Assembly: GCA_001782645.1 (NCBI GenBank)
Contig: MFPH01000031.1
Span: 1 to 35,620, forward strand
Source: Candidatus Levybacteria bacterium RIFCSPLOWO2_12_FULL_37_14
Lineage (GTDB): Bacteria > Patescibacteriota > Microgenomatia > Levybacterales > UBA12049
DNA length: 35,620 bases
Reading direction: 5' to 3'
Shown: piece by piece, positions 6-35,269 of the stretch
Layout: the number at the start of each line of letters is the position of its first letter
Position numbering within the stretch: position 1 is the first letter of the stretch
Made by a program: the position numbers and the translations under genes
Notes under the pieces: model-generated
Database searches by the model: none
Told to the model about the DNA's origin: nothing
Seen by the model: only the letters and a program-made list of their open reading frames with translations

Positions 6-590
6 TTGGGAACTAGCAAATCTAAATCACAACCGGCTGCTCAGATTTCCGTAACCCCAGTACCTTCGCCTGCCGAAGCCTCAGCGAAGGAGGGGGACCC
101 AACCGCAAATTGGAAAACATATACGGTTACAAAATTAGGAATTGAATTTAAATATCCGCCTAATTTTTCCCCAATTGCAATTTTTGATAATGAATTATTT
201 CCAATCTCTTTTACGGACAACTCGAATACAAAACATCGTCTATCAACGTCTCCTGATATTTCCATTAAGGTTATTCCTATCGTTTCAGGAGATGATTACA
301 AAACAACCTTAATTAAGGATGTTATTTTTGCTGGCAGTGGCATGCACCCTAAATCTTTTGTCGAATTTTCTTCAAAAACGATTGGCGGAAATATGGTTTA
401 TTATATTAAAACCGGCCTATTTGAAGGAGTCCTCTCCATTAATTACTACCTTGTTAATAAAAATCAGGTTTTTGCTTTTAATCTGACCTCCAGTCCGGTT
501 GATTGGACAAATCCTAATTTTAAACCTGAAGAGGATCTCCTGAATTTGAATATGCAACAAATTCTTTCCACCTTCAAATTTACTAATTAA
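6..590 (+). CDS. Secreted or lipoprotein-like hypothetical protein, probably 5'-truncated by the window edge
   Basis: 194-codon ORF whose frame stays open to the window start. It has a Pro/Ala/Ser linker (VTPVPSPAEASAKEGDP) followed by a globular part with no motif I recognise. Confidence 0.6.
   Translation: MGTSKSKSQPAAQISVTPVPSPAEASAKEGDPTANWKTYTVTKLGIEFKYPPNFSPIAIFDNELFPISFTDNSNTKHRLSTSPDISIKVIPIVSGDDYKTTLIKDVIFAGSGMHPKSFVEFSSKTIGGNMVYYIKTGLFEGVLSINYYLVNKNQVFAFNLTSSPVDWTNPNFKPEEDLLNLNMQQILSTFKFTN
63..97 (+). repeat. GC-rich palindromic element copy inside a CDS
   Basis: ccttcgc (63-69) pairs with gcgaagg (84-90) and is followed by aggggga. It has the same ends as the intergenic element at 15965-16007 (ccttcgc...gcgaagggggg). 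Confidence 0.5.
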
Positions 591-1696: not shown

Positions 1697-2842
1697 TTAG
1701 AGTTTGGCAGGATTTATGCGGATTATTTTATCATCCGTATTGTCGGGAGTACCGCGGCCATCCCTATTGCTTGTAGTTATGTAAAGCAAATTCTCCGGCT
1801 CGCCTCGCGGCGAAGCGGGTCCTACCACAACTTCCCTAATTCTTCCGATTTCTCCTTTAAGATGGGGGATAAGTTTCTTTTCGGCTATCTTGTATTCAAA
1901 TAGAGCCTCTCCTCTAAGACCGGCAAAAAATATTGAACCATTTAAAAAAGCTGTTCCGCTCGGCGCCCATGTGCCGGAACCGCTATTTAGGATCGGCGAT
2001 TCCATTCCGGCTTGTTTCTGATTTCCCTGAATAGTTGGCCAGCCGTAATTTTTCCCTGCTTCAATAATATTTAATTCATCCAGCGCACTAGGCCCATGTT
2101 CTGTTTCCCACAATTGGTTTTGGTTATCCCAGGCAAGACCTTGGGGATTTCTGTGCCCGAAACTAAAAACCAAGTTTCCGAAAGGATTGTCCAGAGCAGG
2201 TCTGCCTTCATCTGTTATTCTTAATATTTTTCCGGCCAATGAATTTATATTTTGAGCAAGAGAGGGTTCCTGAGCGTCCCCGGTTGTTATATAAAGAAAA
2301 TTATCCGGTCCGAATTTTATTCTGCCACCATTGTGATTGGATGCGCCTAGAATACCATCAACTATAATTTTTTGCTTTTGTAATTTATTATTTTCAAATT
2401 CAAATCTCGCAACCCGATTAAGGGTGTTGTCGTTAATGTTGGAATAAGTGTAATACAGATAAACAAAATGGTTTGCGGAAAAATCAGGATGAATTGCTAT
2501 TCCCAAGAGTCCGCCTTCGCCCGAATGCTTAACGTCACTTATGACAGCTATGAGATTAGGGTTTAAATTACCTTCATTATCGATAATTCTGACGCGTCCT
2601 GCTCTTTCTGTAAATAAAATACTTTTGTCAGGTAAGAAAACCAGCGCCCAGGGAATTTCCAAATTATCTGCCAAAATTGACAATCGGGGAATATCATTCT
2701 GAGCCTGATTTACTTCATTACTATCTAGTGATGGAGTATTTACAGTTATTTGTGATTGCCTCTTTCCCGCTAAATTAATGTAAACAAGACTCAAAATCAG
2801 CAGGACTGCTAAAATAATTAAGATCATTTTTTTGTTTGACAT
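1697..2842 (-). CDS. PQQ-dependent sugar dehydrogenase (glucose/sorbosone dehydrogenase family), membrane-anchored or secreted
   Basis: 381 aa with an N-terminal hydrophobic anchor. Family blocks present: GLLGIAIHPDF, HNGGRIKFGPDNFLYITTGD, GHRNPQGLAWD. Confidence 0.9.
   Translation of the reverse strand: MSNKKMILIILAVLLILSLVYINLAGKRQSQITVNTPSLDSNEVNQAQNDIPRLSILADNLEIPWALVFLPDKSILFTERAGRVRIIDNEGNLNPNLIAVISDVKHSGEGGLLGIAIHPDFSANHFVYLYYTYSNINDNTLNRVARFEFENNKLQKQKIIVDGILGASNHNGGRIKFGPDNFLYITTGDAQEPSLAQNINSLAGKILRITDEGRPALDNPFGNLVFSFGHRNPQGLAWDNQNQLWETEHGPSALDELNIIEAGKNYGWPTIQGNQKQAGMESPILNSGSGTWAPSGTAFLNGSIFFAGLRGEALFEYKIAEKKLIPHLKGEIGRIREVVVGPASPRGEPENLLYITTSNRDGRGTPDNTDDKIIRINPAKL
1799..1820. 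repeat. GC-rich element copy inside the dehydrogenase CDS
   Basis: ctcgcctcgcggcgaagcgggt is identical to 14368-14395 apart from a 6-nt indel. On the mRNA strand it folds as ttcgcc-GCGA-ggcgag. It encodes the ASPRGEPE segment. Confidence 0.7.
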
Positions 2843-10548: not shown

Positions 10549-11046
10549 ATGAATGACAGAAAATTTATAATTATAACGGTTGTTTTAACGGTGGCGTTGC
10601 TTTTCGGAGGAATATTTTTCCTGACAAAAACAACTAACGCTCCTCAAATTACCGCTTCGCAAAATGCCAAAGCTTACGTAGTTGATCCTACAAGTTTTGA
10701 TTGGGGGGATATCCCGATGTATAAAGGAAATAAGACAAAAGTTTTTGCGATTAAAAATACAGGAACAGATACTCTTAAATTGTTTAATGTAAGAACTTCT
10801 TGCCATTGTACGAAGGCCTATGTTACGATTGACGGAAATGACAGTCCGAGCTTTGGTATGGATAACTTATCTGCTTGGACAGGAGAAGTGTTAGCAGGCA
10901 AAGAAGCAAAATTAACTGTGGTTTTTGATCCGGCATTTCATGGCCCCCAAGGCATGGGGGCGGTAAACAGATTTGTGTCCGTTGAGACAAACGACCAGGC
11001 AAATTCTAAGCTAACGTTTACTCTTACGGGAGCGGTAGTTAAATAA
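10549..11046 (+). CDS. Membrane-anchored DUF1573 domain protein (SCHCT motif)
   Basis: FDWGDIP...KVFAIKNTGTDTLKLFNVRTSCHCT matches the DUF1573 pattern. N-terminal TM segment. Confidence 0.75.
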   Translation: MNDRKFIIITVVLTVALLFGGIFFLTKTTNAPQITASQNAKAYVVDPTSFDWGDIPMYKGNKTKVFAIKNTGTDTLKLFNVRTSCHCTKAYVTIDGNDSPSFGMDNLSAWTGEVLAGKEAKLTVVFDPAFHGPQGMGAVNRFVSVETNDQANSKLTFTLTGAVVK

Positions 11047-14152: not shown

Positions 14153-14653
14153 GTGAAAAAAATTGCAATAATTTTTATCGGTTTATTTCTGATAATTTTG
14201 GTGATTATACTTATGAAAAGTTTTTCTATCAGCATAAATTCAAAAAGTACAGGCAATTCCAATAAGGCGCTTAATCCAAGTCCAAGTAGTAGCAATAACT
14301 TGAAAGCAAAAGAAAATACAGAGGGTTCGGTTACTGTTGCAATTACTCAATTAAATTTAACAGATAACTCGCCTCGCTTTGCGGGCGAAGCGGGTTCATC
14401 GACCTTGGATTTTGAAATAGTGTTGGACACTCACTCCGGAGTATTGGATGCTGATTTGATTGGCGTATCCGAACTTGTTGATGATCAGGGGGAAATATAT
14501 AGACCAATAGCGTGGGAGGGGGATGGTCCGGAAGGGCATCACCGCAAGGGAGTTTTAAAATTTAAACCCATTCTGCCTAAGCCTAAGTCTATTGAATTGA
14601 AGATAAAGAATGTTGGCGGAATTCCCGAAAGAAGTTTTAAATGGAGCATCTAA
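14153..14653 (+). CDS. Secreted or anchored hypothetical protein with a W-E-G-D-G-P-E-G-H-H motif
   Basis: GTG start, signal-anchor MKKIAIIFIGLFLIILVIIL, and a beta-rich C-terminal domain. Carries the GC-rich element at 14368-14395. Confidence 0.65.
   Translation: MKKIAIIFIGLFLIILVIILMKSFSISINSKSTGNSNKALNPSPSSSNNLKAKENTEGSVTVAITQLNLTDNSPRFAGEAGSSTLDFEIVLDTHSGVLDADLIGVSELVDDQGEIYRPIAWEGDGPEGHHRKGVLKFKPILPKPKSIELKIKNVGGIPERSFKWSI
14368..14395. repeat. GC-rich element copy inside a CDS
   Basis: ctcgcctcgc-tttgcg-ggcgaagcgggt has the same 10-nt and 12-nt arms as 1799-1820. It encodes SPRFAGEAG. Confidence 0.7.
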
Positions 14654-16903: not shown

Positions 16904-16953
16904 AATAAATCACCTCCCTTGCCTCGCCGCAATTTTAATGTAGGCGGGTTTCG
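16904..16953 (-). repeat. Leader element homologous to 15965-16015, filling the whole copB-YHS intergenic gap
   Basis: The minus strand reads cgaaacccgcctacattaaaattgcggcgaggcaagggaggtgatttatt-ATG. It aligns with cgaaaccctccttcgcataaagctacggagggcgaaggggggtgatttgaa-ATG. Confidence 0.6.
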
Positions 16954-19320: not shown

Positions 19321-19349
19321 AGTATATACCCCTGGGGGGTATATGTCAA
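19321..19349 (-). promoter_or_regulatory. Promoter with a CsoR-type operator embedded in the spacer
   Basis: The minus strand reads TTGACA-tataccccccaggggta(17)-TATACT-N10-ATG. The spacer contains the inverted repeat atatacccc-tgg-ggggtatat (19324-19344). No Shine-Dalgarno. Confidence 0.7.
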
Positions 19350-19365
19350 CCCCGCTCAGCGGGGT
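19349..19365 (+). repeat. GC hairpin directly upstream of a Shine-Dalgarno
   Basis: accccgc-tca-gcggggt is a 7-bp perfect stem, followed by cAAAGGAGGTGA and the ATG at 19383. Confidence 0.6.
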
Positions 19366-19382
19366 CAAAGGAGGTGAAAAAA

Positions 19383-33023: not shown

Positions 33024-33326
33024 ATGACTGAACGTAAAAGAAATTCCACATTTAAACAACTATCTCCGGATGAGTTAAAATCCATTGCAAAAAAATGCAT
33101 TGAATCAGCAAGAGTCGCCAGGTTTGATGATGAGATGTTGGTAAAGCTAGAATATTCTTCGCGTGCTTTGCGGGCGGGAGGGTTTACGATCGAAAATCTT
33201 GGCATGGAGATAAACGACATCTTCGAAATTACAAACCGCCTTTTTGATAAAAAAATAGAGATAGATGCGAGATTTAAGAGAATGGAACAAGTTTTAGATT
33301 CATATCCACGAGCGAGTAGGCAATAA
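33024..33326 (+). CDS. Hypothetical protein (100 aa)
   Basis: I prefer the ATG at 33024 over the GTG at 32994 because of the -10/N6 arrangement. Confidence 0.5.
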   Translation: MTERKRNSTFKQLSPDELKSIAKKCIESARVARFDDEMLVKLEYSSRALRAGGFTIENLGMEINDIFEITNRLFDKKIEIDARFKRMEQVLDSYPRASRQ

Positions 33327-34063: not shown

Positions 34064-35269
34064 ATGAATTTGTCTGTCGGAATTGTTGGATTACCTAACG
34101 TTGGAAAGTCGACGCTTTTTAATGCGTTGTTGAAAAAGCAGACAGCTTTCGTCGCAAATTATCCTTTTGCCACTATTGAGCCAAATGTTGGAATCGTTCC
34201 TGTGCCGGATTCCCGTTTGGAAAAGCTTGCAGAAATCACCAAAATTGAGGCTAAAATGGCTGAATTGCCTCCGATAAAACCCGCAACAGTAAATTTTGTG
34301 GATATTGCAGGACTCGTAAAAGGAGCAAGCGAAGGCGCAGGATTGGGAAACAAATTTTTGTCACATATCCGCGAAGTTTCAATTATTGCCCATGTGGTTA
34401 GGGTTTTTACTGATGCCAATGTTATTAGATATGAAGATGAAGAGACCCGCCTTCGCCAAAGCTCCGGCGGGCAAGGGGGAAGTGTGGGACCCAAAGAAGA
34501 TTATGAGGCAATCGAAACAGAATTAATTTTAGCTGATTTGCAAACTATCCAATCGGCGCAGGGAAAAGTGAAAAGATTTGCCAAGGAAACAGAAAAAACT
34601 GCGATTGAAAAATTATTTAAAGGATTAAATGAGGGGAAGCGGGCCTCGGAAATTGAATTAATGTCGGAAGAGCAGGAATATGCCAATACGTTTTTTCTTC
34701 TGTCGGCCAAGCCGGAAATAATTGTCTTAAACGTGGAAGAAAAAGACTATAACGAAAAATCTATTGAATCTATTGCCCAAAAATATAAGGAGATGCTGAA
34801 ACCAGTTCAGCATGACAACGAGGGGAATACAGTTGTTATTTGCGCGAAAATTGAATCTGATTTATCAGAGCTTTCAGAAGATGAGCAAAAACAATATTTG
34901 GCAGATTTGGGCGTTAAACAATCTGGTCTTGAAAGATTGATAAAAAATGCTTATGCAACTTTGGGTTTGATTTCTTTTTTAACTTGCGGAGAGAAAGAAG
35001 TCAGAGCTTGGACCATTCGACGCGGTTCGACCGCTCTCATGGCCTCCGGCGAGATTCATTCGGATTTTATGAAGAAATTTATCAAAGCGGAAGTTGTTTC
35101 ATATCCTGATTTTGTAAGTTTAAACGGTCCCGCCCGCAACGACTTCGCTAGCTTGTCTAGCGTGTCGGGCGGGTGGAAAGCTGCGCGGGAGAATGGAAAA
35201 GCCCGCATGGAAGGCCGCGATTACATCATGCGGGATGGCGACGTAGTAGAATTCAAGATTGGGGTGTAA
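34064..35269 (+). CDS. ychF: Ribosome-binding ATPase YchF (Obg-like GTPase family) carrying two insertions
   Basis: GIVGLPNVGKSTLFNAL, FATIEPN, DIAGLVKGAS and a C-terminal TGS-like GEKEVRAWTI...DGDVVEF. At 401 aa it is longer than the roughly 363-aa length I recall for typical YchF. Confidence 0.92.
   Translation: MNLSVGIVGLPNVGKSTLFNALLKKQTAFVANYPFATIEPNVGIVPVPDSRLEKLAEITKIEAKMAELPPIKPATVNFVDIAGLVKGASEGAGLGNKFLSHIREVSIIAHVVRVFTDANVIRYEDEETRLRQSSGGQGGSVGPKEDYEAIETELILADLQTIQSAQGKVKRFAKETEKTAIEKLFKGLNEGKRASEIELMSEEQEYANTFFLLSAKPEIIVLNVEEKDYNEKSIESIAQKYKEMLKPVQHDNEGNTVVICAKIESDLSELSEDEQKQYLADLGVKQSGLERLIKNAYATLGLISFLTCGEKEVRAWTIRRGSTALMASGEIHSDFMKKFIKAEVVSYPDFVSLNGPARNDFASLSSVSGGWKAARENGKARMEGRDYIMRDGDVVEFKIGV
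34439..34480 (+). repeat. GC-rich palindromic element inserted in-frame in ychF (first insertion)
   Basis: cccgcc (34446-34451) pairs with ggcggg (34466-34471). The sequence aligns with the intergenic leader at 15965-16007, including a compensatory stem change. It encodes about EETRLRQSSGGQG. Confidence 0.65.
35129..35173 (+). repeat. 45-nt nested palindrome inserted in-frame in ychF (second insertion)
   Basis: cccgcccg (35129-35136) pairs with cgggcggg (35166-35173), and cgctag (35146-35151) pairs with ctagcg (35157-35162). It is exactly 15 codons (PARNDFASLSSVSGG) and starts on a codon boundary. Confidence 0.75.

Follow-up and report, generated by a model that had tools for sequence, protein, structure and literature searches.

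A GC-rich 21–30-nt palindrome inserted in frame in two unrelated Levybacteria genes, a probable miniature mobile element shared among bacterial phyla

The question raised by this locus is how two unrelated genes of one genome came to carry the same GC-rich sequence. The locus is a 35,620-nt stretch of contig MFPH01000031.1 from Candidatus Levybacteria bacterium RIFCSPLOWO2_12_FULL_37_14, referred to as the window, i.e. the whole stretch of DNA that was analysed. Read along the plus strand of the window, the minus-strand gene for a pyrroloquinoline quinone (PQQ)-dependent sugar dehydrogenase contains CTCGCCTCGCGGCGAAGCGGGT at 1799-1820 (CTCGCCTCGC followed directly by GGCGAAGCGGGT), and a gene for a membrane-anchored protein contains CTCGCCTCGC-tttgcg-GGCGAAGCGGGT at 14368-14395. 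The shared unit is here named E, with the formula CCCGCTTCGCC-loop-GCGAGGCGAG; by this convention, both window copies carry the E strand on minus. We find that E is an insertion, that it is dispersed, frame-neutral in genes, free of target duplication, nested in loops, recurrent at similar targets and conserved across phyla. E is probably a miniature, non-autonomous mobile element, a GC-rich imperfect palindrome with main forms of 21, 27 and 30 bp and a rarer form of 24 bp. The two window copies and their host genes are as follows.

1697..2842, minus strand: host gene 1, a PQQ-dependent sugar dehydrogenase of the GSDH family (Pfam PF07995, E-value = 1.2e-81; PDB 3a9g, E-value = 2.8e-78)
1799..1819, minus strand: the 21-nt copy (E21), CCCGCTTCGCC-GCGAGGCGAG, translated in frame as (P)ASPRGE(P) in the GSDH gene
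14153..14653, plus strand: host gene 2, a 166-aa membrane-anchored protein with an N-terminal hydrophobic anchor and weak Pfam matches only
14368..14394, minus strand: the 27-nt copy (E27), CCCGCTTCGCC-CGCAAA-GCGAGGCGAG, which the plus-strand gene reads antisense as SPRFAGEAG

The sequences at both sites are exactly those described in an earlier note on this DNA, which had reported one repeat shared by two coding sequences and differing by the 6-nt indel tttgcg, and the translations given there (GPASPRGEPE and NSPRFAGEAG) are both correct. Its extents, 1799-1820 and 14368-14395, stand except at their last base: empty sites in related genomes place the copies at 1799-1819 (21 nt) and 14368-14394 (27 nt), and the final T that the two share belongs to the flank. 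The window has a GC content of 37%, so both segments appear as sharp GC spikes. Their 10-mer and 12-mer arms are commoner in the window than in dinucleotide-preserving shuffles, and by our own arithmetic a 22-nt identity would be expected ~7e-5 times by chance within 35.6 kb. A covariance model trained on 30 E variants (R1) scores the E21 copy at 37.7 bits (E-value = 4.9e-07) and the E27 copy at 43.5 bits (E-value = 2.2e-08). The hairpins claimed for both copies are also recovered by folding: the dehydrogenase mRNA copy forms the GCGA tetraloop described earlier (-14.8 kcal/mol, z=-1.2), and the mRNA copy of the 166-aa gene folds at -18.6 kcal/mol (z=-3.7).

Both copies are gains relative to their homologues. 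The seven residues ASPRGEP are missing from 26 of 29 aligned GSDH homologues, which derive from Candidatus Levybacteria and other Microgenomates and read VVGP-DNLLY where the window protein reads VVGP-ASPRGEP-ENLLY. The same 7-residue gap is seen in three PDB structures (3a9g, 2ism, and 3das), and the insertion of about 8 residues that had been suspected at a G-P-D-G-x-L-Y turn is thus one of 7 residues, located exactly there. In an AlphaFold model of the dehydrogenase (mean predicted local distance difference test score, 86), the insert lies between strands 335-340 and 353-357, and its residues 345-347 are the sole low-confidence stretch inside the propeller. For the 166-aa protein, the nine residues SPRFAGEAG are missing from all 18 homologues; its gene sits in a copper/thiol-redox envelope cluster, and the syntenic locus L006 has DsbD_TM, AhpC/Redoxin, and copper P-type ATPase neighbours.

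The same gains can be followed in the DNA. Against the empty orthologous GSDH sites (loci L004, L002, and L003), the dehydrogenase gene shows a change from GGA^CCGGAT to GGA^CCCGCTTCGCCGCGAGGCGAG^CCGGAG (the caret marks the junction), i.e. a clean 21-nt gain with no duplicated target. Against the empty syntenic site in L006, the 166-aa gene changes from GATAA^TTC... to GATAA^27 nt^TTCATCG, a clean 27-nt gain that again leaves no duplicated target. The same organism, a member of the candidate phyla radiation judging by these homologues, is present in several groundwater metagenomes at >99.9% identity, and the GSDH insertion is found again in independent JGI, ENA, and NCBI assemblies. Presence/absence variation within the species was also sought: all four cluster members are 381 aa long, and the contigs L007-L010 all have the insert.

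Beyond the window, E occurs at many loci. A genome scan (one genome per species, 21 exact arm bases, 0-6-nt loop) and a metagenome scan (exact arms, 7-37-nt loops) each returned at least 120 loci, with 77 copies having a 9-nt loop among the metagenome matches listed. The copy counts, lengths, hosts, frames, and junctions reported for E rest on the matches listed from these scans. By our own arithmetic, ~2 chance matches are expected in the genome scan at uniform base composition. The lengths of E fall mainly at 21 nt (30 copies), 27 nt (74 copies), and 30 nt, 24 nt being less frequent, and some loops are found repeatedly (CGCGAA, GACTCA, CGCAAA, and RRAGCTYCA). Diverged subfamilies exist as well, e.g. 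CCTGCCTCGCC...GGCGGG.

According to record titles, the hosts include many classes of Patescibacteria. Others are Nitrospira and other Nitrospirota (>8 independent metagenome-assembled genomes, MAGs), Pirellulales and Phycisphaerae/Sedimentisphaerales, Lentimicrobiaceae, Sphingobacteriales, and Ignavibacteriales, and furthermore Omnitrophota, Elusimicrobia, WOR-1, and Raymondbacteria. MAGs account for nearly all of these matches, and E is also present in two records labelled complete chromosomes (OY970292.1 from Levybacteria and OY969116.1 from Berkelbacteria). The single isolate match and the matches in genomes of at least 64% GC have odd lengths and a chance-like look. The scan of viral contigs gives one match, in a 61%-GC contig, and BLAST searches of phages and of plasmids from cultured bacteria find no full E copy, with partial matches at chance level (E-value >= 0.8). 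Rickettsia is absent among the E loci listed, and no Rfam family matches E at gathering and E-value thresholds.

One taxon label in this set, 'uncultured Gammaproteobacteria', is probably unreliable where it is attached to L050, L034, L014, L041, and other MAG contigs (34-42% GC), because the PDB chains closer to their RpoC/AtpD fragments are of actinobacterial or Bacillus type and not those of E. coli. Full-text searches with arm sequences and descriptive terms found no prior description of E, within a literature coverage that is incomplete and therefore yields absence of evidence only. One paper does contain CCCGCTTCGCC, as part of an unrelated mycobacterial primer.

Copies inside genes behave as frame-neutral additions. 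E is read in all six frames and in either orientation, and it is found in coding and non-coding DNA. The check proposed earlier, whether copies avoid stop codons in all frames, shows that the arms are stop-free in six frames and that the 8 of 204 element-frames with a stop all owe it to certain loops. Among copies from genomes with less than 50% GC, those of multiple-of-3 length lie in open reading frames (ORFs) of at least 250 aa in 36 of 71 cases, compared with 0 of 10 for other lengths (Fisher p=0.0018). The E-bearing genes encode housekeeping and other proteins such as RpoC, GyrA, AtpD, ValRS, ArgRS, PurL, transketolase, a copper ATPase, Fpg, and RNase J. In all three that were compared with PDB structures (AtpD, GyrA, and RpoC), the segment that takes up E is variable or gapped. 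The simplest reading is that translation continues through intragenic copies, adding 7-10 residues to surface loops, since the copies in long ORFs have multiple-of-3 lengths and are stop-free, so that neither bypass nor splicing is needed. Translational bypass was considered and rejected on the multiple-of-3 lengths; a CRISPR repeat, an RNA gene, and an uptake signal are rejected by the layout and density of E.

The dehydrogenase family also reveals that E returns to the same kind of site. Peptides of E type are present in 15 of the 120 best GSDH homologues, where they occupy three different Pro-Asp turns. Eleven proteins have them after FL (mostly PASPxGGP), one has a nested PASPASPRGVQRGEP after KFG, and the window protein, P0002, and P0005 have them after VVG. 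The empty sites read TTA^CCGGAT, GGN^CCNGAT, and GGA^CCGGAT, with a common target A/T^CCNGAT that is not shared by other E sites. In a neighbour-joining tree built without support values, the occupied alleles are polyphyletic and scattered. The VVG site holds the canonical 21-nt form in the window, a 27-nt form in L001, and in L135 a 21-nt derivative with the loop end of L001, and the arms are identical despite protein identities of 73-77% (77% for the window and L001). Two alleles that are 97% identical differ in occupancy, i.e. L132 is empty (1018-1030) and L133 is filled (201-235) with a CCTGCCTCGCC-GCAA-GGCGGG variant. Of the seven substitutions that separate them in the first 600 nt, four touch the insert, lying immediately beside it, and three are elsewhere; this clustering hints at import by short-patch recombination.

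A further GSDH hot spot lies after AAY (L003:10919-10936; P0028, P0032, P0043, P0055, P0074, and P0087). It holds inserts of 6-7 residues (LPPEGG, LPRRQAG, LSPEGE, and LPAGEAG), which are encoded by a different small GC-rich hairpin, CTGTCCCCCGAGGGAGAG.

Junctions were compared in two sets of copies. The base before E (position -1) is a purine (G/A) in 113/127 and 70/77 copies, and the base after it (position +1) is C/T in 106/127 and 68/77 copies. On the left flank, the most frequent 4-mers are GAAG, CCGG, and TTTG; on the right flank, they are CGAG, CCGG, and CGAT. A flanking direct repeat is lacking in 98/127 copies, and the 5 copies with repeats of 6-7 nt lie in tandem-heptamer contexts. 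In several Levybacteria-like loci, E is found precisely between tandem heptamer units (AACTTTG, GAAATTG, AGTTTTG, and CAATTTT), giving apparent 7-nt flanking repeats, at the following places.

L079, 5751-5771 and 7031-7051: E between heptamers
L106, 7035-7055: E between heptamers
L091, 2882-2902: E between heptamers
L046, 3186-3206: E between heptamers
L126: E between heptamers

Nitrospira copies have CGTGAAG/CGTATCT heptamers and distal inverted copies at their flanks, forming units of ~110-150 nt that resemble MITEs, the miniature transposable elements with inverted repeats.

E is often held in the apical loop of a larger, lineage-specific hairpin; Sphingobacteriales, for example, have CCTGCCTGyCCGG^E^yAGGCAGG, and Levybacteria have ATTCCCGCG^E^AAGGCGGGAAT. 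E also lies within E (L076, L111, L112, L020, and L134) and in the loops of other hairpins (L044, L049, and L064), and other GC-rich modules nest in E loops in turn. The outer modules are lineage-specific and common to the copies of one genome; composite units therefore appear to have been multiplied within genomes around a core that is shared across phyla. The CCCGC... strand is the C-rich strand in 41/61 low-GC copies, a weak bias (p ~0.01, uncorrected). Both window copies have the same orientation, and the GC skew of the window is uniformly positive.

Given that identical arms recur in the housekeeping genes of many phyla, E looks like unusually small and widespread mobile DNA. If so, it would be mobilised in trans by a hairpin-recognising enzyme acting on single-stranded DNA, similar to the HUH/Y1 transposases of the IS200/IS605-RAYT type (RAYT, REP-associated tyrosine transposase; REP, repetitive extragenic palindrome), or alternatively by a structure-specific cut-and-ligate activity. 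A single-stranded route fits with four observations: there is no duplication, nesting occurs in loops, a weak strand bias is present (41/61), and GCGAAGC lies on one strand. Occupied alleles may also spread among related strains by short-patch homologous recombination.

The GCGAAGC heptamer is present on one strand of every canonical E copy (GGCGAAGCGGG) and on both strands of the common 27-nt form. Excerpts of the literature on GCGNAGC 'mini-hairpin DNA' describe this motif as an extraordinarily stable compact hairpin (PMC13037366). In those excerpts, the subject is a 7-8-nt structural motif and not a dispersed genomic insertion element. The motif may have a role in E mobility.

Several observations weigh against a mobile element. 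First, no transposase or other protein family recurs near E in ORF clustering over 121 loci of 8 kb around copies, and no full-length parent (arms 0.1-4 kb apart with an internal ORF) was found in ~1 Mb of loci, which gave single-arm chance matches only. Second, no conserved 4-5-nt 5' target of the IS200/IS605 kind is seen among E flanks. Third, the GSDH insertion is fixed in this species, and therefore no ongoing movement is observed. Copy density is modest, with 2-3 copies in the 35.6-kb window and ~8 extra copies in 730 kb of pattern-selected loci. Lastly, since only exact arms were accepted in the scans, part of the constancy that the arms seem to have is an effect of ascertainment, and some host labels are doubtful, notably those of the 'uncultured Gammaproteobacteria' MAGs.

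The missing parent bears on another reading, namely that E is the excision footprint of a larger cut-and-paste transposon with ~10-nt terminal inverted repeats, whose variable centre is the repair junction and whose copies in genes are the in-frame survivors. Such a footprint would account for constant arms around a centre of variable sequence and length (from 0 to 9 nt or more), for the absence of a target duplication, and for a related GC-rich hairpin at window 60-101, which lies exactly at the junction of a 504-nt deletion relative to same-organism contigs. However, the centres are non-random and recur across phyla (CGCGAA 28 times, GACTCA 9 times, and RRAGCTYCA dozens of times), and both the nesting of E in E and the lineage-specific composites point to copying of the small unit itself. 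In addition, the essential genes rpoC, gyrA, and atpD would first have survived insertion of the full transposon, and no element with E termini and an internal gene is found in the loci examined. We thus regard a footprint as unlikely.

To a motif of the host we give slightly less credence. In this case, E would be a cis-acting sequence (a protein binding site, a DNA-uptake-like signal, or an mRNA hairpin) kept by selection and spread by recombination. The polyphyly of the occupied alleles is consistent with that, as are arms that are identical across phyla and between orthologous copies of 77%-identical proteins, and the four of seven L133 vs L132 substitutions around the insert fit import by short-patch recombination. 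Yet the presence of E in both orientations, six frames, and coding as well as non-coding sites fits poorly with a function at the RNA level or in protein coding. Furthermore, E arises by insertion and not by point mutation, its density is far below that of uptake sequences, and it matches no Rfam family.

Chance, artefacts of assembly or sequencing, and conversion between the two genes over a domain in common are effectively refuted as sources of the identity: high-GC genomes do yield chance-like matches of odd length (L056, L109, L121, and L131), but the expected chance count is negligible, the insertion recurs in the independent JGI, ENA, and NCBI assemblies and E in the complete-chromosome records, and the dehydrogenase and the 166-aa protein have no similarity to each other, as had been said in the earlier note.

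A mobile element remains our preferred interpretation, and E is best read as behaving like Rickettsia palindromic elements (RPEs) or REPs while belonging to neither family. RPEs have 44 integrations in R. conorii, many of which are in-frame fusions (PMC10969869). Like E, they are palindromic repeats inserted in frame in unrelated, often essential genes and read through in tolerated positions. The RPE-like character proposed for the repeat is therefore borne out by its behaviour, i.e. in-frame and stop-free insertion, and fails for family membership, as E is too small and is found in the wrong hosts. Specifically, RPEs are ~100-150 bp long (PMC10969869), make up about ten families that each have their own conserved peptide, and do not extend beyond Rickettsia, whereas E measures 21-30 bp (about five-fold smaller), is read in six frames and tied to no single peptide, and has identical arms across Patescibacteria, Nitrospirota, Planctomycetota, Bacteroidota, Omnitrophota, and others.

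The REP/REPIN-RAYT systems, as presented in excerpts of three papers, resemble E in being 20-40-nt GC-rich imperfect palindromes that lack target duplication and form composite or nested units, and single-strand hairpin chemistry is plausible for both (PMC2817692, PMC3733652, and PMC3116915). They differ in several respects. REPs are extragenic, whereas about half of the E copies in low-GC genomes (36/71) and both window copies are intragenic. REPs have a GTAG or CGTC head, whereas E starts with CCCG and ends with CGAG. Finally, REPs are species-specific, number hundreds per genome, and come with a RAYT gene, whereas E crosses phyla at modest density and has no associated gene in the loci.

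Another likeness is with the GC clusters and 'byp' elements of yeast mitochondria, which are organellar, ~30-60 nt long, and usually flanked by a short target duplication. These too are short GC-rich hairpins that invade AT-rich genomes and genes, have an optional and polyphyletic presence, and insert into one another. Because the ribosome skips byps, these may be out of frame; by contrast, E is bacterial, and its copies in long ORFs are all multiple-of-3 and stop-free (non-multiples in long ORFs, 0/10).

MITEs such as the Coxiella QMITEs and intragenic ERIC sequences are, like E, non-autonomous inverted-repeat elements that can add residues in frame (PMC10969869; excerpts of PMC5896051). They differ in size (50-500 bp), in their terminal inverted repeats and target-site duplications, and in having an identifiable parent insertion sequence family. 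E is several-fold below this size range, lacks a duplication, and has no parent in the loci. With IS200/IS605 elements, E shares a hairpin and the lack of target duplication. DNA uptake sequences, on the other hand, are 9-12 nt long, occur about once per kb, and arise by substitution, in contrast to the low-density, 21-30-nt insertions seen here.

A bolder proposal, to which we give somewhat less than even credence, is that E represents the core of a pan-bacterial, hitherto undescribed class of mobile DNA made of ultra-small hairpins (21-30 bp). An enzyme acting in trans, and recognising a single conserved hairpin in at least five phyla, would move the members of this class, which would enter single-stranded loops and short CCNGAT-like targets with no duplication of the target. 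Their multiple-of-3 lengths and stop-free arms would have evolved to hide them in essential genes as harmless loop insertions.

Two other places in the window have sequences related or similar to E.

34446..34471, plus strand: degenerate copy resembling the 30-nt form, CCCGCcTTCGCC-AAAGCTCC-GGCGGG, in ychF (weak R1 match, 13.7 bits, E-value = 0.18)
16918..16948, plus strand: possible E-like hairpin of uncertain membership, CTTGCCTCGCC ... GGCGGG, with an AT-rich 14-nt loop (R1, 12.2 bits, E-value = 0.39)

The ychF copy sits in an in-frame extra segment of 14 residues, a length by which the PDB YchF structures 2dby and 1jal are gapped. Its left arm and AAAGCT loop are those of the 30-nt E form of metagenomes (loop AAAGCTCCA/AAAGCTTCA) and of the outer element of L076. 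The hairpin at 16918..16948 is placed between convergent genes, and its arms resemble the CCTGCCTCGCC...GGCGGG subfamily of L002, L003, and L133. A second in-frame extra segment of ychF, ~15 aa long (PARNDFASLSSVSGG, 35129-35173), is also missing from the PDB YchF structures. This segment is encoded by CCCGCCCGCAACGACTTCGCTAGCTTGTCTAGCGTGTCGGGCGGG, a strong palindrome of 45 nt (-18.8 kcal/mol when folded as DNA) from a sequence family other than E.

Additional GC-rich sequences are scattered over the window. At 33157-33182, TCTTCGCGTGCTTTGCGGGCGGGAGGG lies in a 110-aa ORF without family and is similar to the 27-nt E form when this is read on its reverse strand (…GCTTTGCGGGCG…). Two short perfect GC hairpins have no match to E: GTCAACCCCGCTCAGCGGGGTC at 19345-19366, which is intergenic and terminator-like, and GCCCCCAAGGCATGGGGGC at 10941-10964, within ORF 10549..11046. 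A generic scan of the window for perfect GC-rich hairpins found 5, with 2.7 +/- 1.6 expected, and is uninformative because the E copies are imperfect palindromes. The sequence at 60-101 (GTACCTTCGCCTGCCGAAGCCTCAGCGAAGGAGGGG...) is a GC-rich hairpin with CCTTCGC/GCGAAGG arms that stands in place of the 504-nt segment kept in the same-organism contigs L007-L009, which makes it a structural variant whose deletion junction bears a hairpin. The 504-nt segment is one of two tandem domains of a 396-aa protein, and contig L010 terminates precisely at this junction.

Should E indeed be mobile, it would rank with the smallest known units of mobile DNA, and in-frame 'stealth' insertion in housekeeping genes, known from RPEs, would be widespread in uncultivated bacteria. 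It would also explain the recurrent short GC-rich indels in proteins of the candidate phyla radiation and of other environmental bacteria, indels that affect alignments, phylogenies, and structure models. E would serve as a marker for horizontal exchange between co-occurring phyla, and the repeated use of Pro-Asp turns in GSDH proteins offers a natural experiment on loop tolerance in beta-propellers. It also raises the concrete question of which enzyme recognises one conserved 21-bp hairpin in hosts as different as these.

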